A stretch of DNA of 64,000 bases from Squalus acanthias (Eukaryota). The position numbers and the translations under genes are program-made. Shown here piece after piece: positions 5,027 to 63,869 of the stretch (its first letter is position 1; every line of letters starts with the position of its first letter). The notes below the pieces were generated by a model. That model had not been told where the DNA came from. It did not search any database and saw only the letters and a list, made by a program, of their open reading frames with translations. The stretch lies in assembly GCA_030390025.1 (NCBI GenBank), contig CM059432.1:61382001-61446000 (forward strand), given 5' to 3'.

Positions 5027-5945
5027 GGGGGAAAAATTCAGTTGGTTGCGCCTCCCGTTAGCCGACGGAACTGCTGGAAGCGGAGACACTCAATGTTAAG
5101 AGGGCGCTAATGGGGTGCAAAGCATCTAGCGCCCAGGCGCGGCGAAGTTTGCGCCGCTCGCGAAATTAACTAGACATTTTGCGGCGGCGCTAAACACTAC
5201 CGCCACGATCTCCTGCGCCGGCAGATCGTGACGTCAGTCGAGTGCGCAACGCCACGGTATCGCCCCGGAGCGGATATTGAGTGGCGCCCCCTGCCTTACC
5301 GCCTGACGCTAGCAACGACAGGTTGAGGGGAGCGTTTTGCAGTCATGAAGGGACTGGGGGAGCGCTATTTAAAGGTGAAAGCTTCCTGCCTTTTATTGTT
5401 GGTGCCATTTTTGAACCACGCATTCTGAGAGAGAAGGAGACTTCTGGAGAGATTCAACATTGTGTGAAGGAGTTTTGGGTACTGAGCAGCACTTTGCAGG
5501 TTCATTTTGATTTGCCATTCCTTGTATCGATTTAGAAGAGACTGTGGGGGCTGCACTCTGAGCTCTTTGCCTGGTACTCTCCATTGTTCTTTCCAGCAGA
5601 TTTGATGTGCAGGTCTCTCCAGGCCGAGATTCAAGGCTGCAATGAGCAGGATGTGGATGGAAAGCAAGATCAACCATCCCCTTTAAGAACTGGCCCATGC
5701 CATTGTGTGTGTGTTCCATTGCTGACTGACATTACATGAGCTTCGCCAGCGCTCTGAGTTAGCGCCTCACTCCTCGGCCTTTGCGCCTTAAGACAGGTGT
5801 GAAGCGCCTGATTTAGCACTCCAATCACCTCCAGGGGCGATAAAAGTCAAGTTTGCAGTCGGTGGCGATAATTAGCAGCAGGCGTTAATTTTTGCGCTCG
5901 GCCGATAATTGCGCCCCAAATGGGGCGATACTGAATTTCTCCCCC
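5027..5945 (+). mobile_element. MITE family A inserted in the 3' tail of a minus-strand CR1
   Basis: TIR gggggaaaaattcagt / actgaatttctccccc, TSD ata. Nearly identical to 36077-36966. Confidence 0.85.
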
Positions 5946-16281: not shown

Positions 16282-16949
16282 CCTTAATATGCTCCACCTG
16301 GCTCCACAGCAATACTGCGGCTGCTACCAGTCTGCGCTCAACATCCCCTTCCGTTTACCTGCTTGCCCCCAGGACCTACCTGATGACTGCTGCCACAGTC
16401 CAAGCCGGACGATCTTGCTTTGGGCCCAACTGATGAGTAGCATTGTGATGCCTGATTGGCACCCGCAGTTCACCACTTTCATGATAATGAGGCCTGAGGA
16501 CCAGTTTCTGACCATCTTGGGGCCGACCTCTTCGGGCGCTCGTTGTAGTTGCGTTGCCCATTTCGCAGCAGTGGTCGGACGCTAACCAATTTCTTCTCCT
16601 GTATGTAGCAAAGATCACCTTGGTCTGTGTGTACCAATTTATCTTAGAGAACCATTTTAAATACCTTTCTGTTCAATCTATGTTACATTAAAAATCTTAC
16701 ACCGGTCCCCACTTCCTGTCTACAACTCTTTACCTCCTGTTGTCACATTTCTGTCAGACTTTTGTGTCAGTTTTTTCCATGATAAATTTCTATGCCCACA
16801 TTTATAATGGAAACTGTCTATGTAAAATTGTCACTTTGTAATTATACCCTCCTAACACTGGTGGGAATTAGCACTCCTGGCTATTTGGCATGTACTGCAT
16901 TCTTACTGTACGACAGAATTCCTCTAGTGTGGTTGATTGCTCCCACATG

Positions 16950-17520
16950 GTCATACGTGCCCCTTTTCACATGCAATAAACTACTTGACAGGAAAGGGAT
17001 CCACTCACTGAATATGCAGCTGGTTTCCGACCACAACCACCAATTCCTAAATGTTAATGCATGTTTTTCTGGAACCTGCCATGATTCATTCATTTTGAGA
17101 CAGTCCACCATACCACCACGCTGCTGTAGAAGACAAGTGTCTAGGTGGATCCTTGGAGCTTAGGGCTACCCTTTGCAGCAATAGCTGATGCCACTAGTTT
17201 AGGTTGCTAGGACATCAGCTGAGCATTGTTACAATAAGATCCACTGCACCACTGGAATAATAATTGAGAAGACAATCAGTACTCTGGAGATGTATTTCAG
17301 ATGCTCAAACGACTGGTGGAGCACACCAGTATATTCCTGCCAGGGTGTTCCAGGATACTCCTTCCAGGGTGTTAAGAATCATGACGGTGGCCTCCTCATG
17401 CATATCCTGGAGGAAGATGAGGAAAAACTGCAAGGGCAGCAGGGTAATCGGGCAAGCAAAAACCTGCTGAAAGGAAGAGGTTGCAGATGACAACCCTTTG
17501 CTGACTGCAAAACATATCTG
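16950..17520 (+). pseudogene. Harbinger (HARBI1-like) DDE transposase fossil
   Basis: RKGIHSLNMQLVSDH..FLNVNACFSGTCHDSFILRQS, then GYPL, IEKTISTL..FRC, with multiple stops. Confidence 0.8.
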
Positions 17521-21157: not shown

Positions 21158-22390
21158 CTTCTTCTTCTTAGGCAGTCCCTCGGAACCGAGGATGACTTGC
21201 TTCCACATTAAAAATGAGTTCGCAGGTGACTAATGAGTCCAATGCGGGACCTACAGTCTCTGTCACAGGTGGGGCAGACGGTGGTTGAAGGGGCGGGTGG
21301 GTGGGGTGCTTGGGTTGACGTGCGCTCCTTGCGCTGCCTGCGCTTGGCTTCCGTTTGCTCCCGGCGAATAGACTCCAGGTGTTCAGCGTCTTCCCGGATG
21401 CTTCTCCTCCACTTTGTGCGGTCTTGGGCCAGGGATTCCCAGGTGTCGGTGGGGATGTTACACTTTTTCAAGGAGGTTTTGAGGGTGTCCTTGAAGCGTT
21501 TCTTCTGCCCACCTGGGGCTCTCTTGCCGTGCCGGAGCTCCGAGTAGAGCGCTTGTTTTGGGAGTCTCGTATCGGGCATGCGGACAATGTGACCTTGTGG
21601 TGGAACCGTTGGTCAGGATCACGGCTTGCATGTCGTAATGAAGCAGGCGGAGGATGGTGACAAACTTTTGAGGGCAGCCGAATTTGAGGGGGACACTCCA
21701 TAATCCCTCACGGTTGACAGTGTCGAAGGCCTTTGTGAGATCAAAGAAGGCCATGTACAGCGGTTGGTGCTGTTCCCTGCATTTCTCTTGTAATTGACGT
21801 GCGGTGAAGATCATGTCCATTGTGCCCCTTAGTGGGTGGAATCCGCATTGCGACTCTGGGAGGAGCTCTTCGGCCACTGGGAGAAGGCGATTGAGGAGAA
21901 TTCTTGCGATGACTTTCCCTGTGGCAGACAGCAGGGAAACTCCTCTGTAATTATTGCAATCGGACTTGTCACCTTTCTTGAAGATGGTCACAATTAAGGC
22001 GTCTCTGAGATCCTCTGGCATGCTCTCCTCCTTCCAGATAAGAGAAATGAGTTCCAGTAGTGCTTCTCCGCCATGCTTTAGTGCCTCGGCTGGGATTCCA
22101 TCTGCTCCTGAGGCCTTGTTGTTCTTCAGTTGTCGGATGGCCTTTTCAACCTCATGCTGGGCTGGGGTTGTGCTGAGATGGTGGCGGGTAGCATGCTGCG
22201 GGATGCAGTTGAGGACACTCGGGTCGAAGACAGAGTCTCAGTTAAGGAGATCTTTGAAGTGCTCCTTCCAGCGGGCACTGACTGTCTCTCTGTCCTTGAT
22301 GAGTACCTCTCCGTTCTTGGCCCGCAGTGGGGTAGGGCCTTGGGTGCTTGGGCCATAGATGGTCTTGACTGCGCTAAAGAATCCATGCAC
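21158..22390 (-). mobile_element. RTE-clade LINE fragment with internal deletion
   Basis: KKGDKSDCNNYRGVSLL, ESQCGF, FFDLTKAFDTV, C-terminal CPTC..HLRTH, (gaa)n tail. Confidence 0.9.
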
Positions 22391-27968: not shown

Positions 27969-30900
27969 CCAACAGGAACGATGTACTCGCTACCTGTGAG
28001 GACAAGGAGAAAGACTGCAGGGAGGACAGCACAATGCAGACCAAGGCACCATGGCTCAGAAGGCTGTCCAAAGGGGAGGGAAGAGCAGAATAGAAATGTG
28101 GTAGTGATAGGGGATTCTATAATTAGGGGGATAGATAGTGTACTCTGCAGCCAAGAATGAGAATCACGAAAGGTGTGTTATCTACAGGGTAAGGGATATC
28201 TTGAGGCAGCTGGAGAAGAATTTGGAAAGGTAGGGGGTAAATCCAGTTGTTGTTGTCCATGTCGGAACAAATGACATAGGTAGGAACAGAGAGAAGGTCT
28301 TGCTGAAGGAGTATCAGGAGTTAGGAGCTAATTAAAAAGCAGACCTCGAGGGTAATAATCTCTGAATTATTGCCTGAGCCATGTGCAAATTGACATAGAA
28401 GCAGTCAGATCAGGAGAATTAACACATGGCTAAAGGGCTGGTGTGGGAAAGAGAGGTTCCTTTTCATGGGACACCGGCACCAGTACTGGGACAGGAAGGA
28501 GCTGTTTTGAAACAGGATGGGACCCGTGTCCTAGCGGAAAGGGTAAGTAGGGAGGTGGCAAAGGCTTTAAACTAGTAAGATGGGGAGAGGAATCTACAAA
28601 AAATGAAACCAGCCTAAATATAAACAAAACAGAAAAGGAGAGCATAGGAAAGTGTAAAGTAATGAAGGATATTGATGGCCAGGGAATAAATGGAGTTACA
28701 GAACAGGAGTGTAAAAAGATGGTTAAAATTAAAGTGAAAAGAACTGCTATGCACACAGTGTCCGTAATAAAACAGGGTAGCTGGAGGCAATCATGCGTTG
28801 CGAGGAACTAGGCATAGTAGGGATTACTGAGACATGGCTACAGAAAAATCAGGACTGGGAATTAAACATTGCAGGGTATAACATACTTAGAAAAGATAGA
28901 GAGGGAAAAAGGGGAGGTGGAGTAACTGTACTTATTAGGGATGACATAATGGCAGTAGAAATAAGTGATGCAGCTGTCAGCAAGACAGAAATAGAATCCA
29001 TGTGGATAGAGATAAAAGATAATAAAGGATCAATCATACTAATAGGGCTAGTCTACAGGCCACCTCATAGTGGAAGGGAGGTGGAGGAAGAAATTTGCAA
29101 ACAAATTAGGGAAATGAGTAAAAAACATAGAATAATAATCATGGGGAATTTCAACTACCTTGATATTAATTGGACAGAAGAGGTAGGCAAAGGGGATAAG
29201 GGAATGGAGTTCCTACAATGTGCATAGGACTCATTTCTAACCCAATATGTAAGAAGCCCAACAAGGGAGGATTCGCTATTGGATCTAGTAATGGGGAATG
29301 AACCAGAGCAGATAAAAGTAGGGGAACATCTAGGCAATAGTGATGATAATATAATACGCTTTAAAATAATAATTGAGAAGGACATAAGTATGATGAAGAC
29401 CAGGGTAATAGATTGGAGAAAAGTTGATTTTCAGGGGCTGAGACTAGAACTTGGGAAAATAAAATGGACAACAATATTGGCAAACAATGACGTAGAACAG
29501 CAACGGGAAACATTTCAAACGCTGTTCAACAGACTCCAGGAAAAATATATTCCGCTAAAAAACAAGAACAAACTCCGTGGATGAATAAAGCCATAAGGGA
29601 AAAATTGAGTGTAAGGAAAGAGGCATACATTAAGTACATGGACAACAGGGGAGGGCATGACAAGAGAGAATACGAAGAGATTAGGAAAGAAGTCAAAAAA
29701 ACAATTAGGAAGACAAAGAGGAACTATGAAATTAAATTATCAAGGAACATAAAACAAAATAATAAAATATTTTACAGGCACATCAATAAAAAAAGGAAGG
29801 TCGGGATGGGAATAGGGCCACTAAGGGATGGACAGGATAATACCACAGGCAGTGAGAGAGAGATGGCAGAAATATTAAATAATTACTTTGCCTCAGTATT
29901 TACCAGGGAAATAGAACAGGTGGACATGACATTGGATCATGAGATTAGTAATGAAATAACTGCATTTAAAATAAAAAGAGGAGGTATATTAAATAAACTA
30001 ATCAAACTCAAAGAGGAAAAAAACCCTAGTCTGGATGGATTACATCCACGCATTTTAAAAGAAACTAGGGAAGAGATAGCAGAGGCATTACTACACATAT
30101 TTAATAATTCATTAGAAAAAGGTGTAGTGCCAGAGGACTGGTGGATAATTAACATAATACTTATATTTAAGAAGGGAAATAGAACATGTCCAGGGAACTA
30201 TAGACCAGTCAGCTTAGCATCGGTGGTAGAAAAAATAATGGAATCCCTACTAAAGGAGAAAATAGAAGCCAAAATTATAATAATGAATAGTCAGCATGGA
30301 TTTCAAAAGGGAAAGTCTTGCTTGACCAACCTCATTGAATTTTTTGAAGAGGTAACAGAGAGAATAGACAAGGGTAATGCAGTAGATGTAATGTATCTAG
30401 AGTTTCAAAAGGCCTTCAATAAGGTACCACATAATAGACTAATGAATAAGGTCAGAGAATGCGGAGTCAGGGGACAAGTAGCAGAATGGATAGCGAGTTA
30501 GCTTCAAGACAGAAAGCAGAGAGTAGGGGTAAAGGGTAGCTATTCACAGTGGCAGAATGTGGGAAGTGGTGTTTCACAAGGATCAGTGCTAGGACCACTG
30601 TTGTTCACAATTTATATTAATGATTTAGACTTTGGAATCAAAAACACAATTTCTAAGTTTGCAGATGACACCAAATTGGGGGGAATAGTTAATACTGAGG
30701 AGGACAGCAAAAAATTACAGGAAGACATTAATAAACTTGCAGAATGGGCATATAATTGGCAAATTAAATTCAACACAGATAAATGTGAGGTATTACATTT
30801 TGGTAGGAAGAGTAGGGAGGTCACTTATTACTTGGAGGGTGCGAGTCTGGGAGAGGTACAAATATATAAATCACTAAAGGTAGCGACACAGGTTAACAAG

Positions 30901-36076: not shown

Positions 36077-36966
36077 GGGGGCAAAATTCAGTTGGTTGCG
36101 CCTCCCGTTAGCGCCTTAAGAGGGCGCTAATGGGGCGCAAAGCAGCTAGCGCCCGGGCGCGGCGAAGTTTGCACCGCTCGCGAAATTAACTAGACATTTT
36201 GCGGCGGCGCTAAACACTACCGCCACGATCTCCTGCGCCGGCAGATCGTGACGTCAGACGAGTGTGCAACGCCCCGGTATCGCCCCAGAGCGGATAGAGT
36301 GGCGCCCCCTGCCTTACCGCCTGACGCTAGCAACGACAGGTTGATAGGAGCGTTCTTCTGTCATGAAGGGAAAGGGGGAGCGCTATTTAAAGGTGACCGC
36401 TTCCTGCCTTTTATTGTTGGTGCCATTTTTGAACTACGTATTCTGAGAGAGAGTGAGAGAGACTTCTGGAGAGATTCAACGTTGTGTGAAGAAGTTTTGG
36501 GTACTGAGCAGCACTTTGCAGGTTCATTTTGATTTGCCATTCCTTGTATCGATTTAGAAGAGACTGTGGGGGCTGCACTCTGAGCTCTTTGCCTGGTACT
36601 CTCCATTGTTCTTTCCAGCAGATTTGATGTGCAGGTCTCTCCAGGCCGAGATTCAAGGCTGCAATGAGCAGGATGTGGATGGAAAGCAAGATCAACCATC
36701 CCCTTTAAGAACTGGCCCATGCCATTGTGTGTGTGTTCCATTGCTGACTGACATTACATGAGCTTCGCCAGCGCTCTGAGTTAGCGCCTCACTCCTCGGC
36801 CTTTGCGCCTTAAGACAGGTGTGCAGCGCCTGATTTAGCGCTCCAATCACCTCCCGGGGCGTTAAAAGTGAAGTTTCCAGTCAGTGGCGATAATTAGCGC
36901 AGGCGCTAATCTTTGCACCCGGACGATATTTGCGCCCCAAACGGGGCGCGACTGAATTTTTCCCCC
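36077..36966 (+). mobile_element. MITE family A, complete copy
   Basis: TIR gggggcaaaattcagt / actgaatttttccccc, TSD tag. Confidence 0.85.
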
Positions 36967-39257: not shown

Positions 39258-42200
39258 TATGACTCTATTAGAAAAGGGTGTTTTTAAAAAAATCTAGAGC
39301 TATAGAGGGAGCAGAGGAATGGGAAGACAGTCAAGTGTCCGAGTACTGGCAAAAAAAAGTCCCGAGAGTGTTCAGATCTCAGAATACTTGGGATGGGGCC
39401 CTGGGACTGTTGGGGTCTCAAAGTACTGGAAGAGGGATCCTGAAGTGTTCCAGGATGTGAATAAGATCAGTCACACATGAAGAAGAAATCAGCAAGTAAC
39501 TGAAATGATGAGGTTATTATTATTCTCCAGCATACTTATTTGTGGAAATTTGCTGAAGGGAGGAGCCTCAGGGGCACTGTAATAAATACAGTAAATTGAG
39601 CAGGAAGATGATGTAAATAATAAAAGCACCCTGAAGTGCCATCAGCTTTATGACTCAGATTGAATTGCAATTGCAACTGGCAACCAGTGTCATTCAGGCA
39701 AGTTCTGCATTGGAGATAAGTGTGCTGATAAGGTTTTGTTATTTGGTAGGCTTGTTTAATGCCAATGCAGCTGATGGCATTTTGTGTTTTGTATACTGTC
39801 AACAGGTGCTGTGCTCCAGTGAGTCAAGACTAGATCCAGCCAAATAGTGCCAGGTGGGACTGGAGAGCAATTGTTTACACAGGAGTCAGTGGGCCCCACC
39901 AGCTGCTTAGTAAACATATTTGCCTCTGATTCAGTTCACACAGTAATTTTTGTTAAATTTACCTGTGCCTGTGATTTAAAATCATTATCAAATCAAATTA
40001 GGCGCTCTTTCATTTTTTTTTTAAAGCGCGTGCTCCAAATTGCCCCATAATCTGTACAGAAATCAATTTGTTACAAAGTAATTGCATTTATTTATTTGTT
40101 TGCCAATCCGCTTCTGTTATAATATCAGTGAAGTTCGTAGGAGTTGATTTCAGACTGCTGCTGGTAGCTGGAAGGAAAATTATTTGGGGGCTATTGCTGT
40201 GGTATTTACTGTAACTGGAAAGGGATTCATTGCAGGCTACAGTTACACCAGTAAGTACAGCAACTCCCTTTCCTGACACACAAAAATTCAGCTGATTTCT
40301 GTACTACAGGTGACAATCTAACAAGCCATTTTTAGTAGTTTACAGTACATAAATAATTTTTAAAAAGCAGAATCAAAAGAAAATGCTAATAGTACAGAGC
40401 TTTGTTAATGGCTGAAAAAAATGTAAGACAATCTTTTATAGCAAAGGAAAGGAAAGCCATGTATGTTCCAGCCACAAAGCTTTTAAAGGGATAGTGTCTG
40501 TTGTGCTCTGTCACTGTGTATTTTTCTACTATTGGCTCTGGAACATTTATTTTGTTCTTGAACGTTTCAGATTTTGTTAGGGCAATCACGTATCCCATGA
40601 CCAGGTTTTAAATTCTGTGGCAAGTGCACAATACTACCAACAGGTCATGCCTGGTTTCATCCTAACTCTAGCTACTGCAAGTTCTGTCACTTATTAGAAG
40701 GATAAAACAATAAAGATTGACGTGATTCCACAATGCAGCACTGCAAGCAAGCAGAGGTGCTTGAAAGGAGGATATCTTGGGAAACCATGGGTACGCAGCC
40801 TGTAATTTTGGGTGAGTGCTGTTCCCCACTGGCAGTGTCAGATTGCAGAATCATCAACTCCTGTTAGATCAGCCAAGCTGAGATGATGGAAAACAAGCCA
40901 CGTTGCGCGACACAAGTCCAAGACCACAGGCTATCCTCTCCTTCCCATGACCATACTTCCTCAGCAAAGAAACATTGGAAGGACATGGCCTTGGTTTGCT
41001 ATAATCTTTATTTGAGGAAGGGGGCATCTGCAAAACTTTTTTCGTATCTATAATGAAGTTTTCTGCTGTCAGAGTAGAGTGAGTAAATGCCTGAATTTGT
41101 TCTGGTCATCGGAAAAGGGTATCCATCTCACTACACTTCATAAATGTTGATACCTTAGGCTCATTTCCAACCACCATTCAAACCTTGGACCAAAAAAGAT
41201 AAGCAAGGTCTCTTCAAGGGGGCAGAATCTGGAAGGCACTATTAACAGTAGACTCAAGTTAGCAGCAAGAATATCCCAAATGCTTAATATGGAGGGAGGG
41301 CCCAGTCGAGGCATCTTCTCTCTTCAACTCACCCCAAAGGCTTATCTGCTGAAAGCCTCAGTCTTAGTCAACATCTTCAGTGGATGAATCCTTCCTGTCT
41401 TTGAGGTCTTGTTATCCCTTTAAACGTTCTGCCAGCCTTATCTGGTGCTGCAACGATGGGCGGAAGTCTCACCCCAACCTTGTTAGTGGTTAGTAGGAGA
41501 AACTTTTTGATGCAGAGTGTTATGAGACTCTGGAATGTATTCGCAGAGTTTGTGATTGAAGCAGAGACTGTGTCAACATTAAAGAATAGATGGTTGAAGA
41601 AGAACAAAATAAAGGGTTATGGGAACAGAGTTGGCATTTAGGATTAGGAAAAATGTTCATGTGCAGGATAAACACTGACGTGAACTGGTTGGGCTGAATG
41701 GCCTGTTTTCGTATTGTAATTTTTACATAAGTAGAGCTGACAAATTTGCAGGTTCGTCCTCACTCTATCCATCCTCTGTGGCCCATTCATGACCCTCCCT
41801 GCCCCTGTTGCATCATGAGCATTCATAGGGTGCTAGTGCCTATTTCAGGTAAATATCTTGAATAGTAGGGGAAGCAATTAAACAAGGAAAAAATTAAAGG
41901 TCCAATCCAAATAAACTATGATAGAACAGAGCAATGTAAAAAAAAAAAGGGCACCGGCATTTGGTCCCCATACCAACCACAAAAGGAGGGGGCATGAGAA
42001 GTCCTTGGCGGGTCGGATCAAGAAAAACCCCAAGGCTTTTTACTCTTATGTGAGAAATAAAAGAATGACCAGGGTGAGGGTAGGGCCGGTCAAGGACAGT
42101 AGTGGGAACTTGTGCATGGAGTCAGAAGAGATAGGAGAGGTGATGAATGAATACTTTTCGTCAGTGTTCACCGAGGAGAGGGGCCATGTTCTTGAGGATG

Positions 42201-42854
42201 AGAGTGTGATAAAGGTGGATAGGCTGGAGGTGGTAGATGTTCTGAGGGAAGATGTTTTAGCAATTTTGAAGAACCTGAGGGTCGATAAGTCCCCTGGGCC
42301 AGATGGGATATATCCTAGGATTCTTTGGGAGGCAAGGGAGGAGATTGCAGAGCCTCTGGCTTTGATCTTTGGGTCCTCACTGTCCACGGGGATGGTGCCA
42401 GAGGACTGGAGAGTGGCAAATGTTGTTCCTCTCTTCAAGAAAGGAAATAGGAATGACCCTGGTAATTATAGGCCGGTTAGTCTTACTTCGGTGGTTGGTA
42501 AGATAATGGAAAAGGTCCTGAGGGATAGGATTTATGACCATTTGGAAAGGGGCAACTTAATCAGGGATAGTCAACACGGATTCGTGAAGGGTAAGTCTTG
42601 CCTAACAAATTTGATTGAATTCTTTGAGGAGGTAACTAAGTGTGTAGATGAAGGTAGAGCAGTTGATGTCGTATACATGGATTTTAGTAAGGCGTTTGAT
42701 AAGGTTCCCCATGGTCGTCTCATGAAGAAAGTAAGGAGTTGTGGGATAGAGGGAAATTTGGCCGATTGGATAAGTAACTGGCTATCTCTATAACCTGGTG
42801 TTGTGCGACCTCTCAATTTTGTCCACCCCAGTCCAACACCGGCATCTCCGCATC

Positions 42855-45533
42855 ATGACCACTATCGACACCACAAACTGCCGGCTCAAAGTGGAGAGAA
42901 TCGCCAAGAAGATCGCGCATATCGACACCGACATCAAGTATCTACAGAGATGCAAGAAAGCAGACAAGATCCCGAAAGGACTACAGATCACGAACCCACT
43001 CAAGTCGACATACAACACAGACTACGCTGAGAGACTCTGCCGTCGTACCTCTCGCACACTCCTCAACCATCTCGTACACCAGCTCTACAGCAAACGCCAC
43101 AACCTCGAAACCAAGATAGAGTCCATGCTCTCAGCCTGTGCTCAGGACACAGCAGACCAGTTACGAGACACCACCAAACAGACGAGGCAACGGAACTACG
43201 CTGCCTACATGCGCATCAAGAACAGGAAGCTTGAGAAACTCGGCATCACCACCAGCAGCAACCAAGCCTCCCCCGGTACCACGGCTGCAACCACAGGGAA
43301 GTCCATCGTCAACTTGTCCGACCATACCCTTCAACCAGACGAAATCGAAGTTCTCGCCCTAGGGCTCAAGTTCTGCCCAACCACCAAAATGGACCCCATC
43401 GGTCTCGCGGCAGACACGGAGGAATTCATCAGGAGAATGAGGCTCCGGGAATACTTCCACAAATCCCAAGATGTCAGCAACAAACCCAATGAGACAATCA
43501 ATGATCCAGAACAGCAGACAGAGGGACTCGCAGTGCAGCAACCGAAGAAAAAAGAGTCAAACTGGACCCCTCCGGAGGGTCGCTGCCCCAAGCTTGACAT
43601 GTATGCTCAAGCTGTCAGGAAATGCATCAACGCCAGATTCATCAGCCGCACTCACAAGACAGTCCAGAATGTCACCCGAGCACAACGCAACGCCATCCAC
43701 GCTCTCAAGACCAACCGCAACATTGTCATCAAACCAGCGGACAAAGGAGGAGCCATCGTCATACAGAACAGAACGGACTATTGTAAAGAAGCATACCGAC
43801 AACTGGACAACCAGGAACACTACAGACAGCTACCCGCAGATCCGACCAAAGAACACACCCGCCAACTCAATAGACTGATCAAGACCTTCGATCCAGACCT
43901 TCAAAACATCCTACGCGCTCTCATCCCACGTACTCCCCGCGTGGGAGACTTCTACTGCCTCCCAAAGATACACAAAGCCAACACACCCGGACGTCCTATC
44001 GTATCAGGCAATGGAACCCTGTGTGAGAACCTCTCTGGATACGTCGAGGGCATTCTGAAACCCATCGTACAGGGAACCCCCAGCTTCTGTCGCGACACTA
44101 CAGACTTCTTACAGAAACTCAGCACCCACGGACCAGTTGAACCAGGAACACTCCTTGCCACGATGGACGTATCGGCACTCTACACCAGTATCCCCCACGA
44201 TGACGGCATCGCTGCAACAGCCTCAGTACTCAACATCAACAACAGCCAATCTCCAGACGCCATCCTACAACTCATCCGCTTCATCCTTGACCACAATGTC
44301 TTCACCTTCGACAACCATTTTTTTACCCAAACACACGGAACAGCCATGGGGACCAAATTCGCACCCCAATACGCCAACATCTTCATGCACAAGTTCGAGC
44401 AAGACTTCTTCGCTGCACAGGACCTCCAGCCAACGCTGTACACCAGATACATCGACGACATTTTCTTCCTTTGGACCCATGGCGAAGGATCACTGAAAAG
44501 ACTACACGATAACATAAACAAGTTCCATCCCACCATCAAACTCACCATGGACTACTCCTCAGAATCGGTCTCATTCCTGGACACACGAATCTCCATCAAA
44601 GACGGACACCTCAGCACTTCACTCTACCGCAAGCCCACGGACAACCTCACGATGCTCCACTTCTCCAGCTTCCACCCTAACCATGTTAAAGAAGCCATCC
44701 CCTATGGACAAGCCCTGCGAATACACAGGATCTGCTCAGACGAGGAGGAACGCGATGGACACCTACGGACGCTGAAAAACGCCCTCGTAAGAACGGGATA
44801 TGACGCTCGACTCATCGATCGACAGTTCCGACGGGCCACAGCGAAAAATCGCATAGACCTCCTCAGAAGGCAAACACGGGACACAACCAACAGGGTACCC
44901 TACGTCGTCCAGTACTTCCCCGGAGCGGAGAAACTACGACATGTTCTTCGCAGCCTTCAACATGTCATCGATGACGACAAACACCTCGCTAAGGCCATCC
45001 CCACGCCTCCACTACTTGTCTTCAAACAGCCGCCTAACCTCAGAAGTACCATCGTTCGCAGCAAATTACCCAGCTTTCAGGATAACAGCGACCACGACAC
45101 CACACAACCCTGCCATGGCAAACTCTGCAAGACATGCCAGATCATCAACACAGATACCACCATCACACGTGAGGACACTACCCACCAGGTACATGGTACA
45201 TACTCATGTGACTCGGCCAACGTTGTCTACCTCATACGTTGCAGGAAAGAATGCACCGCGGCATGGTACATCGGCGAGACCATGCAGACACTGAGACAAC
45301 GTATGAACGAGCACCGCGCAACAATCGCCAGGCAGGATTGTTACCTCCCAGTCGGGGAACACTTCAGCAGTCAAGGACATTCAGCCTCGGATCTGCGGGT
45401 AAGCGTTCTCCAAGGCAACCTTAGAAACACACGACAACGCAAAATCATCGAGCAGAAACTGATAGCCAAGTTCCGCACTCATGAAGACGGTCTCAATCGG
45501 GATCTTGGGTTTATGTCACGATACATGACGTGA
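42855..45533 (+). CDS. Penelope-like reverse transcriptase / GIY-YIG endonuclease polyprotein (892 aa from the first ATG)
   Basis: IKPADKGG, LPKIHK..GRPIVS, MDVSALYTSI, GTAMG, RYIDD; linker CHGKLCKTC; VVYLIRC..WYIGET..R..EH..EHF..E..GLN. No stops or frameshifts. Confidence 0.93.
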   Translation: MTTIDTTNCRLKVERIAKKIAHIDTDIKYLQRCKKADKIPKGLQITNPLKSTYNTDYAERLCRRTSRTLLNHLVHQLYSKRHNLETKIESMLSACAQDTADQLRDTTKQTRQRNYAAYMRIKNRKLEKLGITTSSNQASPGTTAATTGKSIVNLSDHTLQPDEIEVLALGLKFCPTTKMDPIGLAADTEEFIRRMRLREYFHKSQDVSNKPNETINDPEQQTEGLAVQQPKKKESNWTPPEGRCPKLDMYAQAVRKCINARFISRTHKTVQNVTRAQRNAIHALKTNRNIVIKPADKGGAIVIQNRTDYCKEAYRQLDNQEHYRQLPADPTKEHTRQLNRLIKTFDPDLQNILRALIPRTPRVGDFYCLPKIHKANTPGRPIVSGNGTLCENLSGYVEGILKPIVQGTPSFCRDTTDFLQKLSTHGPVEPGTLLATMDVSALYTSIPHDDGIAATASVLNINNSQSPDAILQLIRFILDHNVFTFDNHFFTQTHGTAMGTKFAPQYANIFMHKFEQDFFAAQDLQPTLYTRYIDDIFFLWTHGEGSLKRLHDNINKFHPTIKLTMDYSSESVSFLDTRISIKDGHLSTSLYRKPTDNLTMLHFSSFHPNHVKEAIPYGQALRIHRICSDEEERDGHLRTLKNALVRTGYDARLIDRQFRRATAKNRIDLLRRQTRDTTNRVPYVVQYFPGAEKLRHVLRSLQHVIDDDKHLAKAIPTPPLLVFKQPPNLRSTIVRSKLPSFQDNSDHDTTQPCHGKLCKTCQIINTDTTITREDTTHQVHGTYSCDSANVVYLIRCRKECTAAWYIGETMQTLRQRMNEHRATIARQDCYLPVGEHFSSQGHSASDLRVSVLQGNLRNTRQRKIIEQKLIAKFRTHEDGLNRDLGFMSRYMT

Positions 45534-45866
45534 TCCGGACTCGAGTCGTCGTTAGCTTGTTCACAGATGTGATTCCCAGTAAAAAAGTAAAAATTTTCCC
45601 AGTAAAAAAGTAAATTTTTTTTAAAGCTTTTCGTTTTACATACAGACGGCAGCTTTTGACACGTTAGAACCCCTGCGACTTCACCTCATTGTCTCAGTTG
45701 TATCTTGCTATGTCTTTTGATGTGGTACCTTCCTGGCTGACTTAATTAACTTTATCACACCTCGGCAGATAGTCAGGATGATTTAATTTATTGGTCTGCA
45801 ATTGTAAAGTACACATGCTTTTTTTTCCATCTATATATGCTCTGGCGATTCTGTATCCAATTTACT

Positions 45867-45904
45867 TCACCTGAGGAAGGAGCGATAGCTCCGAAAGCTT
45901 GTGA
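45867..45904 (+). ncRNA. Minimal type I hammerhead ribozyme motif in the PLE 3' pLTR
   Basis: UCAC-CUGAGGA-A-GGAGC(GAUA)GCUCC-GAAA-GC-UU-GUGA. AATAAA follows at 45910-45915. Confidence 0.85.
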
Positions 45905-48097
45905 TTTCAAATAAAACTGTTGGACTATAACCTGGTGTTGTGCGACCTCTCAATTTTATCTCATAGAAGGCAGAGGGTGGTGGTGGATGGAACATTTTCG
46001 GACTGGAGACCAGTTACCAGCGGTGTGCCACAGGGGTCGGTGCTGGGTCCTCTGCTGTTTGTGATTTTTATCAATGACTTGGAGGAGGGGACTGAAGGGT
46101 GGATCAGTAAATTTGCTGATGACACCAAGATTGGTGGAGTAGTGGATGAGGTGGAGGGCAGTTGTAGGCTGCAAAGAGACATTGATAGGATGCAGAGCTG
46201 GGCCGAAAAATGGCAGATGGAATTTAACCCTGATAAGTGCTAGGTGATTCATTTTGGTAGGGCAAATTTGAATAAGGATTACAGGGTCAACGGCAGGGTT
46301 CTGAGGAACGTGGAGGAGCAGAGGGATCTGGGGGTTCATATCCACAGATCTCTGAAGGTTGCCACTCAAGTGGATAGAGCAGTAAAGAAGGCCTATGGTG
46401 TGTTGGCGTTTATTAACAGAGGGTTTGAGTTTAAGAACCGTGAGGTTATGCTGCAACTGTACAGGACCTTGGTGAGACCACATTTGGAATATTGTGTGCA
46501 GTTCTGGTCACCTCACTATAGGAAGGACGTGGAAGCATTGGAAAGAGTGCAAAGGAGATTTACCAGGATGCTGCCTGGTTTGGGGGGGAGGTCTTATGAG
46601 GAAAGATTGAGGGAGTTGGGGCTTTTCTCTTTAGGGCGGAGGAGGATGAGAGGCGACTTAATAGAGGTTTATAAGATGATGAGGGGGATAGATAGAGTGG
46701 ATGTTCAGAGACTATTTCCTCGGGTAGAGGCAGCTGTTACAAGGGGGCATAACTATAAGGTGCATGGGGGGAGATATAGAAGGGATGTCCGAGGTAGATT
46801 CTTTACTCAGAGAGTGGTTGGGGTGTGGAATGGACTGCCTGCTGTGATAGTGGAGTCGGACACTTTAGGAACTTTCAAGCGGTTATTGGATAAGCATATG
46901 GAGCACACCAGAGTGATAGGGAGTGTGATAGCTTGATCTTGGTCTCGGACAATGCTCGGCACAACATCGAGGGCCGAAGGGCCTGTACTGTGCTGTACTG
47001 TTCTATGTATCTATGTAAAAGGTCAGGCAGGACGACAACAACAACTTGCATTTATATAGCTGCTTTAACATCAAAAATATCCCAAAGCCCTTCACAGTTA
47101 AGCATGAGGATAGGGAACAATTTTAAAGGCAATTTCAGTTACCGTGCCCCAGGTTTTGCAGGTCCACAATGATGAAGTCACACCAATGATGCAACATATT
47201 GGAATTTCTGGGGCATCAATGACATGCCCCAACATACTAACCGAATGAATAGAATTAGTGCCACTAATAAGGCTTGGGCCAAGAAGCAGAGGAAGCATCC
47301 TGATCCCACAACACAGTCCCAGTGGAAAACCTGGGCAAGCATAAATTGGGCATCAGGCCTCTGCCCCTGGTTTTCCCCTCGCTCTGTGCCAGCACACAGA
47401 AGCAGAATTTCAGTCCCATTGTTCCCACCCACACTCCTGTCACAGCAATACCTCTAGTCCTCATGTCAAGCACATGCCTTGTTATTATTTTTGAAAATGA
47501 TTACAATTTCTCTCAAATACTTGGCTATTTTCCCTTCAGCATCCATCACCTAACAACAAAAACAAACCTAAAATGAAGCCAATCAAACGCAACGGTGGGA
47601 TCTTCTACCCAACCTGCGCCAATTTCTGGGTGTAGCGGGGATTGGTGGTGGCAGAAAATGCAACAAATAGGCGTTGTGTCGCACTGCTGCCAATTTTCAA
47701 GCCCATTGGATCTCACCTGTGTTTTTCTGGCTAGAGAGAAGTCTCATAATGCATTTATAAAATTTGTGTTATATTGCAGATTCTGTTAACTATTTAAAAT
47801 AAATTGGTTTCCTCAAGCTATTCCCCATATGATGAGTTCCTCATTTAAACTGCACCGTTATGTTGTAAACCTGAATGGAGAGAAAAATCATAAGTCTAGT
47901 GCTCGGTGGCTCAGTAGTAGCTGATGCAATATTGAGCTTTAGTGAGATAGAGCTGTCATTATCTCTATCTTTGAATATCCCAGTGTACTATATTACTACT
48001 TATACAGTGGCAGTAGCAGAGAACTTAAAGGAAGTCTCCAGACATCCTTTCAGCTGGGGAAGATGTGTAACAAAGAGAAGCTGTATGAAGAGAAATA

Positions 48098-49329: not shown

Positions 49330-51840
49330 TTGGGGTGGGCCAGGTTGACCAAGTGTCTGTGGGAGAACACTTGGGTACGAGTGATCATCGTATCATAAGA
49401 TGTATATTAGCAATGGAGAGGAGCAAGGAACAATCTAGAGTGGAACTTCTAAACTGGAATAGGGCTAACTTCAATGGGATGCGAAAGGATCTAGCCAGGG
49501 TAAAATGGAACCAAAGACTGACAGGAAAAACTGTAATGGAACATTGGGTGATCTTTAAGGAGGAGATGTTCCAAGTACAGGCTAGGTACATTCCAACAAG
49601 AGGGAAGGGTAAGGGAACCAAAGCAAGGGCTCCTTGAATGACGAGAGAGATAGAGAAGATGATTAAACAAAAAAAGAGGGTGTATGATGCATGTGAGATG
49701 AATTCTTCAAGGGAGAACCAGACCAAATATAACAGACCATGCTCTTGGTGTGTCTTTGATGTAAGGAAAGATTGTATCTCTGCATTTTTTCTGTGTTTAT
49801 ATTCTGTGAATTTTTGTAGATTCACTCATAGTAACTTTACCTGAAGAAGGGGCGATCGATAGCTCCAAAAGCTTGTAATTTTAAATAAATCTGTTGGACT
49901 ATAACCTGGTGTTGTGCGACTTCAAATATAATAAGTTGAGAGGGGAAGTGAAGATGAAAATAAGATTGGCAAAGAGAATATGAGAGTAGAATGGCGGTTA
50001 ACATAAAAGGGAACCCAAATATCTTCTACTGGCATGTAAACAGTAAACGGGTAGTAAGAGGCGAGGTGGGGCCTATTAGGGACAAAGGTGGTGATATATG
50101 CTTAGAGGTGCAGGGCAAGGCTAGAATACTCAATGAGTACTTTGTATCTTTACTAAGGAGGTGGATACTGACAAAATATCGGTAGAAGTGGAAAAGGTAG
50201 CAGCAATGGAAGGAGTGAAAATTGATAGACAGGATGTACTAGAAAGGCTGGGTATGCTTAGAGTGGATAAGTCGCCTGGTCCAGATGGCTTGCATCCCAG
50301 GTTGCTAAGGGAATTGGGGGAGGAGATAACAGAAGGGCTTGCCATAATTTTGCAATCTTCCCTAGATGCGGGGGAGGTACCTGAGGATTGGAAAGTGGCA
50401 AATGCGACACCATTTTTCAAGAAAGGGTGTAAGGACAATCCTAATAACTACAGGCCAGTCAGTTTAACATCAGTGGTGGGTAAAGTTTTAGAAAAAATAA
50501 TCAAGGAAAAAATTAACGGGCACTTGGAGAGGTTTAAGCTAATTAAGGAGAGCCAACATGGATTTGTAAAAGGCAGATCGTGTTTGACTAATCTAATTGA
50601 ATTTTTTGATGAAGTAACAGGGAGGATTGATGAAGGGAATGCATTGGATGTTGTCTACATGGATTTTAGGAAGGCGTTTTACAAAGTACCACATAGAAGG
50701 CTAGTTAACAAAATTGAGGCTCATGGAATAGGTGGGTCAGTGGCAGCTTGGAGAAGGAATTGGCTTAAGGACAGAAAACAGCGAGTTGTGGTAAATGGCT
50801 GTTTTTCAGACTGGAGGATGGAAGACAGTGGTGTTCCCCAAGGGTCAGTGCTGGGGCCACTGATTTTTTTGATATATATAAATGACCTGGATATTGGAAT
50901 ACAGAGTAGAATTTCTAAATTTGCCGATGACACCAAACTTGGAGGTGTGGCAAACAGTGAGGATGATACCAATCGACTGCAACAGGACATAGAAAGGCTA
51001 GCAGAATGGGCAGACAAGTAGCAGATGGAATTTAATACAGAGAAGTGTGAGGTGATGCATTTTGGCAGAAGGAACAGGGAGAGGCAATATATACTTAATG
51101 GCACAGTTTTAAAGAGTGTGCAGGGACAGAGGGACCTGGGAGTTAATGTGCATAGGTCCCTGAAGGTGGAAGGACATATCAAGAGAGTGGTTAGCAAAGC
51201 ATATGGGATCTTGGGCTTCATAAATAGAGGTATTGAGTACAAAAGTAGAAAAGTTATGCTGAACCTTTATAAAGCGCTGGTTAGGCCACAACTGGAGTAT
51301 TGCGTCCAGTTCTGGTCACCACACTTTAGGAAGGATGTGAAGACCCTTGAGAGGGTGCAGAGGAGATTTACCATAATGGTTCTGGGGATGGGGGATCTTA
51401 GCTACAAGGACAGGTTGGTGAAGCTGGATTTGTTTTCATTAGAGCAAAGGAGGTTGAGCGGTGATTTGATAGAGGTGTACAAGATTATGACGGGCTTGGA
51501 TGGCTAGACGGGGAAAGGCTGTTCCCACTAGTTGATGGTACAAGGACTAGGGGACACAGATGTAAGGTTTTGGGCAAGAGATACAGGGGGATGTGAGGAA
51601 AAACTTTTTTTACGCAGCAAGTGGTGAGGACCTGGAACTCGCTGCCGACGGAAGTGGTGGAAGCGGACACACTCAATGTTTTCAAGGGGAGACTGGATAG
51701 GCACATGAGGGAAATAAACTTGCAGGGCTATGGGGATAGAGCGGGGGAATGGGACTGACTGGATTGCTCTACAGAGAGCGGGCACGGACTCGATGGGCCG
51801 AATGGCCTCCTTCTGTGCCGTTATGACTCTATGACTATGA
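49330..51840 (+). mobile_element. 5'-truncated CR1 (end of EN, RT, 3' tail)
   Basis: LGTSDH, DKSPGPDGLHPR, NYRPVSL, FADD, tatgactc tail. Confidence 0.9.
49733..49922 (+). mobile_element. Solo 3' pLTR fragment of a related Penelope-like element with a mutated hammerhead
   Basis: Ends in ctgttggactataacctggtgttgtgcgac, as the full element does. TSD caaatataa at 49724-49732 and 49923-49931. Confidence 0.85.
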
Positions 51841-60990: not shown

Positions 60991-61220
60991 GATGGATGGG
61001 TGGGGGTAAAATCCTGAAATTGACGAGTTTGTCAGTAATTCTTAATAAATTAGAATTTGCAACAGGAAAGCTACCTATAATGTGGTTCCAATTTGCCAAT
61101 CTCACCATAATGATGACTATTGCGGAAAATTGTCAGGCTGAATGGCCTCCTGAGATGTACGATTGTAACCAATAATATATTCTGATTAAAAAAGGAAAAT
61201 TGCTCAATTCCCCAGCACCC

Positions 61221-63530
61221 TTCTTAGGCAGTCCCTCGGAACCGAGGATGACTTGCTTCCACATTAAAAATGAGTTCGCAGGTGACTGATGAGTCCAATG
61301 CGGGACCTATAGGGCTGGATTTTCAATGACCTGTGGAGTCGGGTTTAGAGGCGTGTGGGGGGTTAAAGTTGCAGGGTCGGGGGTCCCAACCCCATCCCGC
61401 CTCCACGCAATTTTGACAAAATCGGTCACGGAGTTCCCGACTCCGTCCCGCCTCCAAGAGGCGGGAGAGGCCATTAAAGCCCTTAACAAGCCCTAAATTG
61501 GCTCTGTAATGCCATTTTGAAACATTTTAGCTAGTTTAACCCTTTTCCGACGTGAAGTACGCCTGATGTGAAACACTCCAGTGAAACCTGGCGGGAGTAC
61601 AAGTGGATAGCTGACTATCGGCTGCAGGTCTACTATTACAACGGAGATGTGATGAAGGTAGTAGTATTAGGTCTGAAAGTCACCTCTGATACTGCATTGT
61701 CTTCAGAGACTGCCTGGCCTTGCTGTGAGAGACCCTGGATGAAAAAAAATTCTCTCTCTCTTTCTCTCTCTCTCTCTCCTTCTGCTGCTCATTTTGCATC
61801 CAGGTCCACTCACAGCAAAAGCCAGGCAATCTCTGAGACCAGGCAGCCTGCAATGATGGCATCATCAAAGGCGACTTTCCCACTGAAACCACTAATTGGT
61901 TCATGGGTTCCCACATGCTGGAACTCAATTGCCCAATTAAGTGAAAATTGCATCATTCATCCACATTAATCTGGAGTCGGGGGGACAACACGAAATGCGG
62001 GTAACACGACCCCAACCCGACCCCAAGACAAAATCCAGCCCATAGTCTCTGTCACAAGTGGGTCAGACGGTGGTTGAAGGGGCGGGTGGGTGGGGTGCTT
62101 GGGTTGACGTGCGCTCCTTGCGCTTGGCTTCCGCTTGCTCCCGGCGAAGAGACTCGAGGTGTTCGGCGCCTTCCCGGATGCTTTTCCTCCACTTTGTGCG
62201 GTCTTGGGCCAGGGATTCCCAGGTGTCGGTGGGGATGTTGCACTTTTTCAAGGAGGCTTTGAGGGTGTCCTTGAAGTGTTTCCTCTGCCCACCTGGGGCT
62301 CTCTTGCCGCGCCGGAGCTCCGAGTAGAGCGCTTGTTTTGGGAGTCTCGTATCGGGCATGCGGACAATGTGACCCGTCCATCGGAGCTGATCGAGCGTGG
62401 TCAAAGCTTTGATGCTGGGGATGTTGGCCTGAGCAAGAACACTGACGTTGGTGCGCCTATCCTGCCAATGGATTTGCAGGATCTTGCGGAGGCAGCGTTG
62501 GTGGTACCTCTCCAGTGCTTTGAGGTGCCTGCTGTACATGGTTCATGTCTCTGAGGCATACAGCAGGGCGGGTATTACTGCTGCTCTGTAGACCATGAGC
62601 TTAGTGCCGGGTTTGAGGTCCTGGTCTTCAAACACTCCCTTCCGAAGGTGACCGAAGGCTGCACTGGCACACTGAAGGCGGCGTTGGACTTTGTCGTCGA
62701 CGTCTGCCCTTGTTGACAGTAGGCTCCCGAGGTATGGAAAGTGGTCCACGTTGTCCAAGGCCTTGTCATGGATTTTGATAATCGGGAGGCAGTACTGTGT
62801 GGCGGGGGCAGGTTGGTAGAGGACCTTTGTCTTACGGATGTTTAGTGTAAGGCCTATGCTCTCGTACGCTTCGGTGAAGGTGTTGACGATGGTTTGGAGT
62901 TCGACCTCCGAGTGAGCGCAGACGCAAGCGTCGTCTGCATACTGTAATTCGACGACAGAGTATGGGACGACCTTGGATCTGGACTGGAGGCGACGGAGAT
63001 TGAACAGTTTCCCGTTTGTTCTGTAAATTAGCTCCACTCCAGCGGGGAGCTTACTGAGGGTGAGATGGAGCATTGCAGCAAGGAAGATCGAGAAGAGTGT
63101 TGGTGCGATGACACAGCCTTGCTTGACCCCGGTTCGTACGTGAATTGGGTCTGTGGTGGAACCGTTGGTCAGGATCACGGCTTGCATGTCGTTGTGAAGC
63201 AGGGAGAGGATGGTGACAAACTTTTGAGGGCAGCCGAATTTGAGGAGGACACTCCATAATCCCTCACGGTTGACAGTGTCGAAGGCCTTTGTGAGATCAA
63301 AGAAGGCCATGTACAGCGGTTGGTGCTGTTTCCTGCATTTCTCTTGTAATTGACGTGCGGTGAAGATCATGTCCATTGTGCCCCTTAGTGGGCGGAATCC
63401 GCATTGCGACTCTGGGAGGAGCTCTTCGACCACTGAGAGAAGGCGATTGAGGAGGATTCTTGCGATGACTTTCCCTGTGGCAGACAGCAGGGAAACTCCT
63501 CTGTAATTACCGCAATCGGACTTGTCCCAG
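61221..63530 (-). mobile_element. RTE-clade LINE, 5'-truncated, with a MITE insertion
   Basis: ESQCGFR, DLTKAFDTV, GVKQGC, LQYADD; one stop at 62540. The 3' end is nearly identical to 21160-21260. Confidence 0.92.
61312..62041. mobile_element. MITE family B in the RTE 3' region
   Basis: TIR gggctggattt / aaatccagccc, TSD ata. The uninterrupted site is seen in the RTE at 21245-21265. Confidence 0.88.
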
Positions 63531-63748
63531 CACTCACACTCTTGGACACAGATTCACCTCAATGTTTTTATTTTGGGCAGGCAGCAAATACCAATCACAT
63601 AAACAAACTTAGCAGTGCCATCAAGGCACAGAGCAGAGCTTAGATTAAAATGCACAAAAAATCCTCAGTGATATATATGGTTCTTGAATATTGTTAACTG
63701 AACGCTAGATAGTCATTTGATGGGAGTAACCACATTGTAGCAATTACA

Positions 63749-63869
63749 TAAAAACAGAAAATGCTGGAAATACTTAGCAGGTCAGGCAGCATCTGTGGAG
63801 AGAGAAACAGAGTTAACGTTTCAGGTCGATGACCCTTCGTCAGAACTCCGTCAGTATTTTGCTTTTGTG
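63749..63869 (-). mobile_element. Short Penelope-derived inverted-end insertion
   Basis: 14-bp TSD ttgtagcaattaca at 63735-63748 and 63870-63883. Imperfect inverted ends. Confidence 0.75.
63811..63847 (-). ncRNA. Minimal hammerhead ribozyme motif
   Basis: Minus strand reads AGUU-CUGACGA-A-GGGUC(AUC)GACCU-GAAA-CG-UU-AACU. Confidence 0.8.

Follow-up and report, generated by a model that had tools for sequence, protein, structure and literature searches.

A little-mutated Penelope-like element, provisionally of Neptune type, inserted in a CR1 LINE of Squalus acanthias

The window, a 64,000-nt stretch of the Squalus acanthias genome, contains a long open reading frame (ORF) encoding a reverse transcriptase (RT) and a GIY-YIG endonuclease, and this raises the question of whether the copy is a source of further insertions or the product of a source elsewhere. 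Positions 42789-45956 are a Penelope-like element (PLE) that is little mutated and whose enzyme gene is still readable. The sequence-only reading had assigned the span 42789..45957 to such an element; the identity stood, but the end is set here at 45956. The copy is very probably a full-ORF member of an abundant shark PLE family of Neptune type and probably the product of a tandem RNA made at another locus.

All features given below lie on the forward strand. The PLE splits a 5'-truncated CR1 LINE into a 5' part from the RT region, with an open frame (41987-42788), and a 3' part with a single stop codon at 46241 and a short repeat tail (45963-47016). With these two parts and the CR1's own target-site duplication (TSD) AAAAGG (41981-41986 and 47017-47022, identified from sequence), the host LINE is barely decayed, as had been claimed. 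The last three letters of the left AAAAGG are also compatible with CR1. The PLE itself is flanked by TATCTC (42783-42788 and 45957-45962), identified from sequence and contig joints; assigning the T at 45957 to the element would shorten the duplication to 5 bp (ATCTC). The earlier description of a clean TSD was borne out by the two copies of TATCTC and by uninterrupted CR1 in contigs from three of the four sequencing runs examined. In these contigs the empty CR1 is joined between 42782 and 45957, with six letters compatible with either side. This empty form stems from the multi-copy CR1 and is not tied to this locus, and no listed piece reaches unique flanking sequence.

The surroundings are repeat-rich vertebrate DNA, with 48% self-repeat and a CpG observed/expected ratio of 0.43 across the window. 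The ratio is 0.88 in the ORF, in agreement with the abundant CpG noted earlier, and 0.36-0.45 in the flanks of the PLE. A separate, decayed PLE remnant of the same or a sister family, a 90-nt 3' end, lies at 49834-49923; it is 87% identical to the 3' end of the PLE and its hammerhead core is damaged.

An uninterrupted ORF of 892 aa had been proposed, and a single ATG-to-stop frame of that length was recovered at 42855-45533 with no internal stops. It encodes a helical N-terminus followed by RT, thumb, linker and GIY-YIG regions, with the motifs GLKF170 and DKG296 between the helical N-terminus and the RT. It is the longest of the 31 stop-to-stop frames of at least 150 aa in the window, the next having 373 aa. 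When 15 long frames of the window were scanned against Pfam, those with matches were RT fragments. Likewise, 140 of 149 non-repeat frames of at least 62 aa gave only transposon domains, a screen that short host exons would escape. As the sole full-length enzyme ORF seen, it is the only potentially functional enzyme gene identified in the window, as had been suggested.

The RT motifs were confirmed by a Pfam RVT_1 match (E = 1.5e-8) covering residues 427-557 (44133-44525), in which D438, D534 and D535 are invariant in an alignment of 89 sequences. The Cx4CxxC linker, also expected, is present as C753-x4-C758-xx-C761 (45111-45137). The GIY-YIG endonuclease (45207-45497) comprises VVY 790-792, C796/C800, YIG 805-807, R816, H820, H836, E866 and N881. 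A Pfam scan of the whole protein gave no GIY-YIG match. The assignment made earlier was upheld by the last 147 aa, which on their own narrowly passed the Pfam GIY-YIG cut-off (22.8 against 22.6 bits), and by a family profile built from 89 relatives, which matched the intron endonuclease domain 1mk0 in the PDB over the C-terminus (E = 0.006).

Residues C753, C758, C761, C785, Y792, C796, C800, Y805, G807, R816, H820, H836, E866 and N881 are conserved in at least 90% of the 89 sequences. They include the CCHH set (C796, C800, H820 and H836, with the cysteines between GIY and YIG) and the catalytic R, H, E and N. All conserved cysteines of the ORF are kept (a selenoprotein reading is known from some Naiads). 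Departures from the consensus were found at 10 of 169 columns conserved at 80% or more, compared with 8-19 in nine relatives. E819, where close relatives have G, was considered as a lesion and rejected, as Mustelus and 12 of the 88 proteins aligned also have E there. The AlphaFold model of the protein has a pLDDT of 92.6, and its top nine Foldseek matches are telomerase RTs (best E = 1.9e-9). From its sequence, the protein is probably still competent.

Upstream of the ORF is a pseudo-LTR (pLTR) remnant of 66 nt (42789-42854), in which 32 nt repeated at the 3' end of the PLE are followed by a 'tail' into the ATG. The 32-33-nt direct repeat at both ends is element sequence, the last part of the pLTR, and not a TSD. 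With just 66 nt before the ATG, a full upstream pLTR is absent, as had been pointed out. The remnant has neither a hammerhead nor AATAAA because only these 66 nt lie 5' of the ATG. A stem-loop in this leader was not significant (z = -0.89). The 3' UTR and downstream pLTR (45534-45956) end 36 nt short of a common family 3' end and contain a sole AATAAA, at 45910-45915, which is a possible poly(A) signal. A 19-nt pLTR pattern had no matches in viral contigs and none in metagenome contigs, and no phage match was found for the PLE.

The ribozyme motif of the earlier description was recovered as a minimal type I hammerhead at 45867-45904, matched by a descriptor modelled on the hammerhead of Cervera and de la Pena as given in the available text of PMC4209133. 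The motif has a 4-bp stem I, the core, a bulged A, a 5-bp stem II and U at the cleavage position (45900), and the palindrome AGCU replaces helix III. The descriptor matched twice in the window and never in 30 shuffles of it. Among related PLE loci, it matched 19 of 80 in the sense and none of 80 in the antisense orientation, and none of the shuffled loci (10 rounds). An Rfam search up to E = 5 gave no hammerhead and one chance snoRNA match. The U at the cleavage position was considered as the mark of a dead hammerhead and rejected, since 6 of 20 related motifs have U there.

Folding of the hammerhead region was no better than that of shuffles (z = -0.38), as expected of a motif that depends on a dimer. 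By analogy, a hammerhead whose helix III is replaced by AGCU would be expected to work only with a second copy or with help from a protein (PMC4209133; PMC11167929). Since this insertion has a single hammerhead motif, no dimer can form in cis. In the available part of one retrozyme study, which also sampled one chondrichthyan, eight of nine frog retrozyme dimers tested did not cleave (10.64898/2026.07.22.740005).

The PLE family is abundant, mostly 5'-truncated and common to sharks. The ORF matched 666 proteins at E <= 1e-20, and its exact 892-aa sequence was absent from the protein collection searched. The closest were from Heptranchias (87-95% amino acid identity), Scyliorhinus (81-86%) and Mustelus (80-83%), with Heptranchias perlo XP_067848012.1, Scyliorhinus torazame XP_072357570.1 and Mustelus asterias XP_078095826.1 as examples. 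In an RT tree of 134 database proteins, the query grouped with Heptranchias (support 0.93) and then with Scyliorhinus (0.91). Proteins that did not cover the RT core were left out of this tree, Mustelus included, and it had no clade-labelled references. A single cluster comprised 54 Heptranchias proteins, one of them fused to a host gene model.

In run X6, from the same organism and guessed to be RNA, summed contig depth was 294 at 43210-43430 and 28,446 at 45199-45419, with 0-2 in unique flanks; these depths are sums, not copy numbers, and repeat words can inflate them. The rise toward the end of the ORF indicates many copies, most of them 5'-truncated. In run X21, raw reads from another organism, 71 partial reads matched and gave no usable depth.

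In the contig pieces listed, the host CR1 differed from other copies at 4 of 1,919 nt in X17 and 3 of 1,172 nt in X6, and the PLE at 10 of 924 nt and 1 of 433 nt, respectively. Because the PLE inserted after the CR1, the divergence of about 0.2% in the CR1 bounds its age. The data support an insertion that is young in sequence terms only. Among the 40 of 143 differences listed, 32 fall in the ORF; 17 of these are synonymous, against one third expected for transitions (p = 0.016), while 15 are non-synonymous and 7 of the 32 are CpG losses in this copy. The last two counts point to some decay in this copy, and the ORF differences read mostly as inherited subfamily variation with this decay added. 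Recent amplification of the family is likewise supported in terms of sequence divergence, and whether it still jumps today is evenly balanced. Of the earlier claim that the copy belongs to an active family, recent amplification stands.

The young appearance could alternatively reflect slow mutation in sharks, the insertion being old and fixed and its family silent by now, a reading that is tentative and rather unlikely. The mutation rate for a shark lineage is given in the available text of PMC10587355 as 7e-10 per base per generation, and at this rate little about age can be read from an intact ORF or high CpG. By hand arithmetic, 0.2% divided by 7e-10 sets an upper limit of about 3 million generations. 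By a rough estimate, a 2.7-kb ORF that gains about five substitutions stays open about half the time, and the family is spread over shark orders. Nevertheless, the contrast in CpG between the ORF and its flanks (0.88 against 0.36-0.45) and two perfect TSDs argue for youth. Moreover, X6 contigs over the 5' part of the ORF differed from it at 1 of 433 nt, with a depth of about 165 compared with about 3 for a flank contig, and the CR1 source may already have carried some of the 0.2%. An insertion that is recent in sequence terms is the preferred reading.

What was seen directly is the domain content, the hammerhead motif, the large, 3'-biased family and the precise insertion in CR1 with its 5-6-bp duplication; the steps of insertion are inferred from work on PAc, a Poseidon element of Anolis carolinensis, and on Penelope. 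In the available text of PMC11167929, the PLE protein nicks AT-rich DNA, and its RT starts inside tandem RNA at two sites separated by a 30-40-nt 'tail'. By extension, a tandem (more-than-unit) transcript from another locus would be bound by the element's protein, and the GIY-YIG domain would nick the bottom strand of CR1 at the left boundary of TATCTC. The RT would prime on the nicked 3'-OH and begin at an internal point of the RNA, in the upstream member of two start regions separated by about 36 nt. It would stop after copying one unit and a further 66 nt from the repeat before it. A second-strand cut 5-6 bp away would give the TSD.

The start at the upstream region is inferred from the 3' ends of the family, which cluster at 42855-42864, 36 nt past the end of this copy. 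The arrangement is that of a partial tandem with a pLTR and tail, with the 32-33-nt terminal repeat in this copy and a further 36 nt up to the ATG in others. Contig depth in X6 was 45,229 in the bin containing the leader and 532 in the next bin.

A sequence preference of the endonuclease could have led to repeated landing on one base of the RT gene of this CR1 family, which is conceivable but doubtful. Three of the joints listed for run X5 (27 of 356) connect a PLE 3' end to CR1 at 45957, the same base as in this copy. They run from 42855 directly (two contigs, the deepest listed), from 42855 with one additional letter, and from 42862, where letters may lie in between; as these PLE ends differ from that of this copy, they represent separate insertions. 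With 307-356 joints uniform over 1,856 CR1 positions, at least two at one base would occur with P = 0.012-0.016 and at least three with P of about 0.001. Three more CR1 families of the window differ in sequence at the homologous position, and the PAc and Penelope nucleases favour AT-rich sites in the available text of PMC11167929. On the other hand, if the two 42855 forms come from one duplicated insertion and the 42862 joint is indirect, there is one extra event and P is about 0.15-0.17 (hand calculation). The other 329 of the 356 X5 joints may include equally recurrent sites, repeat words can raise contig depth, and X6 and X17 showed the empty CR1 form only. Nor is targeting strict, since other PLE ends join CR1 at 46463, 46487 and 42393, and the flanks of the remnant at 49834 are unrelated. 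The positions 47035-47037 were set aside as a candidate hot spot (seven joints) because the intervening letters are not known.

Three RNA start sites, UGUC, UGAC and UAUC, lie opposite the target TATC. A Neptune-type PLE with a preferred CR1 site and with priming aided by 2-4 nt of pairing between primer and RNA is slightly more doubtful than the site preference by itself. No PLE hot spot in a LINE was found in the literature searched, which had limited reach and consisted mostly of open papers.

This copy is probably not a source element, because most of the upstream pLTR is missing, its one hammerhead depends on a dimer and no tandem RNA is possible. With CR1 following the 3' end and the upstream repeat mostly missing, no more-than-unit RNA can come from this locus. 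Most likely it is a product that at most supplies protein in trans. The opposite proposal, that it is an active master with the 66-nt leader as promoter or with RNA supplied by host read-through, is improbable. The ORF is intact and its catalytic residues are kept, the leader opens with TATAA, followed 26 nt downstream by TCAATTT, which resembles an initiator, and AATAAA is present in the 3' UTR. Such short motifs arise by chance, however, and PLEs are described as needing more-than-unit copies in the available text of PMC4209133. Furthermore, PAc needs RNA of the pLTR-ORF junction at the 3' end of its template (PMC11167929, in the part available), and such RNA is impossible at a locus where CR1 follows the PLE 3' end.

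That the ORF is a domesticated single-copy host gene, or arrived by recent horizontal transfer, is scarcely credible: amino acid identity to Heptranchias proteins reaches 87-95% and the runs of four further organisms (B-E, shares 0.47-0.51) contain near-identical words, but the PLE sits inside a LINE with TSDs, its family is multi-copy (the 54-member Heptranchias cluster), the RT tree nests the query among shark sequences, and X17 has both PLE and CR1 in near-identical form at about one tenth of the X6 depth (ratios 9-13) with the unique flanks empty. Horizontal transfer as an explanation of the word shares was rejected for X17, the sole one of B-E examined, trace host DNA being likelier.

By 2024 the sole full-length PLE protein reported active in vitro was a Poseidon, according to the available text of PMC11167929, which makes an intact Neptune-type ORF a usable reagent. 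With its target and ends known, it could serve in particular to address the role of the Zn-finger-like linker in target choice. In addition, annotated shark gene sets are inflated by this family, as seen in the single cluster of 54 Heptranchias proteins. If the recurrent CR1 site is true, PLEs join the transposons that target other transposons; this would be an endonuclease-bearing PLE with a favoured site in another transposon, and the intact ORF would be the reagent for its test.

Among known systems, the element is provisionally filed from its sequence with the endonuclease (EN)-bearing PLEs of Neptune type, a label that rests on motif comparison by eye with published figures and not on an RT tree with named references. 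The linker had been taken as typical of Neptune. It is indeed present in Neptune, but the available text of PMC8557442 gives CX2-5CxxC as common to Neptune, Nematis and Naiad, so that the label needs further motif comparisons; Neptune is also paraphyletic there. The distance from linker to pre-GIY cysteine, by eye, is 23 residues, against 25-27 in four Neptune-type rows and 7 in three Nematis rows. RT motif 4, compared by eye in the available figures S1-S2 of PMC8557442, is identical at 11 of 14 positions to zebrafish Neptune and at 10 of 14 to frog Neptune, compared with 9 of 14 for the EN-minus Selagine1, 7 of 14 for nematode rows and Poseidon, and 5 of 14 for Penelope. Nematis is disfavoured by both the spacing and RT motif 4. 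The Penelope/Poseidon clade was excluded because a Zn-finger-like linker is present here. The Naiad/Chlamys clade, with N-terminal EN, DKA and no canonical hammerhead, was excluded by the C-terminal EN, DKG and hammerhead of this element. The Hydra clade, with no CCHH, a CxCX5C linker and DKT, was excluded by CCHH, Cx4CxxC and DKG.

The Neptune-type PLEs in the available text of PMC8557442 (Neptune-1_Ac, DrerioNep1, XtropNep4 and Neptune1_Nv) have a C-terminal GIY-YIG with CCHH, as here, and share with the shark element CX2-5CxxC, DKG, the lack of a fingers insertion and a pLTR hammerhead. The linker type is associated there with (TA)n microsatellites, whereas the shark element's target is CR1 coding sequence. 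Neither this copy nor the remnant at 49834 sits in (TA)n, though the bias is a tendency only and these are two loci. No entry for a shark or for Callorhinchus turned up in the available part of that paper's supplement, nor any account of a PLE family from sharks in the literature searched, outside which lay most subscription papers, Repbase and Dfam. The PLE-derived proteins of Heptranchias, Scyliorhinus and Mustelus have linker and nuclease as in this element; in the annotations these shark relatives are uncharacterised and partial, with lengths of 235-728 aa compared with the 892 aa of the ORF in the window.

PAc, as described in the available text of PMC11167929, likewise encodes RT and GIY-YIG in one ORF whose N-terminus is long and helical, and its tandem pLTR-ORF organisation can be likened to that of the shark PLE. 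Its optional tail of 30-40 nt between two internal RT start sites corresponds to 36 nt here. PAc, as a Poseidon, differs in being without the Zn-finger-like linker. Its hammerhead overlaps the start of the ORF, whereas that of the shark PLE is upstream, in the pLTR; its RT starts 111-118 nt into the ORF, whereas the ends of the shark PLE fall at the ATG or immediately before it; and it cuts at ATT, whereas the shark site is TATCTC. For PAc, priming is reported to be homology-free, and pairing between primer and RNA, if real, would be a departure from this.

The minimal hammerheads of metazoan PLEs, in the available text of PMC4209133, have a 4-bp stem I, a bulged base before stem II, a G-C first pair, palindromic 15.2-16.2 and no helix III, all as here; stem II has 5 bp here and 7-8 bp in the Schistosoma families. 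All parts of the element belong to a described PLE architecture and close relatives are present in three annotated shark genomes. The copy is an ordinary member of a known PLE class and a base-resolved example of it.

The leader of the focal Penelope-like element (PLE) contains a segment at 42829–42843 with two complementary partners, namely the terminal repeat and the pLTR sequence immediately upstream of that repeat; the stretches involved lie within 42795–42843 and 45917–45925. As judged from this complementarity, RNA of a tandem PLE could adopt two alternative folds around the region of the RT start. The folding energy was not significant. At the other end of the element, the 3′ UTR carries a tandem duplication of 23 nt at 45573–45618, within which other PLE copies, seen as contigs of sequencing runs, showed length variants at 45614–45617.

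One remnant of a PLE end and a probable second PLE end were also detected elsewhere in the window. A decayed 90-nt pLTR end at 49834–49923 is 87% identical to that of the focal element and has a 4-nt insertion in loop 2 of its hammerhead. Other PLE copies among the run contigs carry a 4-nt insertion at the equivalent position (45882), which points to an older subfamily. A second minimal hammerhead, at 63810–63847 on the minus strand, is unrelated to the focal one, with an ACGU palindrome and a U at the cleavage site, and probably belongs to the terminus of a different PLE family.

Run X17, which is labelled as another organism, gave low-depth contigs over 41000–47600 that were near-identical to the PLE and its CR1 host and were absent from the unique flanks within this interval. 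These contigs are likely to be trace DNA of the host species.

Among the other transposons, a plus-strand fragment at 16786–17160 matched DDE_Tnp_4 (E = 2e-6), suggesting a remnant of a Harbinger-type DNA transposon. An older LINE copy at 28781–30501 (plus strand) retains AP-endonuclease and RT fragments. Two nested minus-strand copies of a single LINE (21164–21970 and 61220–63553), whose RT frames span 259 and 336 aa, are 93–98% identical to each other in parts. The two copies of a CpG-rich repeat (5096–5945 and 36116–36966; local CpG o/e 0.65–0.85) share 94.7% identity over 854 nt.

Pieces of PLE ORF were found fused into Heptranchias and Pelodiscus gene models bearing host gene names (P0128, P0015, P0150 and P0156); these fusions are probably annotation artefacts. 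Two distant PLE relatives of 1,250–1,330 aa, P0074 and P0078, possess PF02338, an OTU-like protease domain, in addition to RT and thumb.
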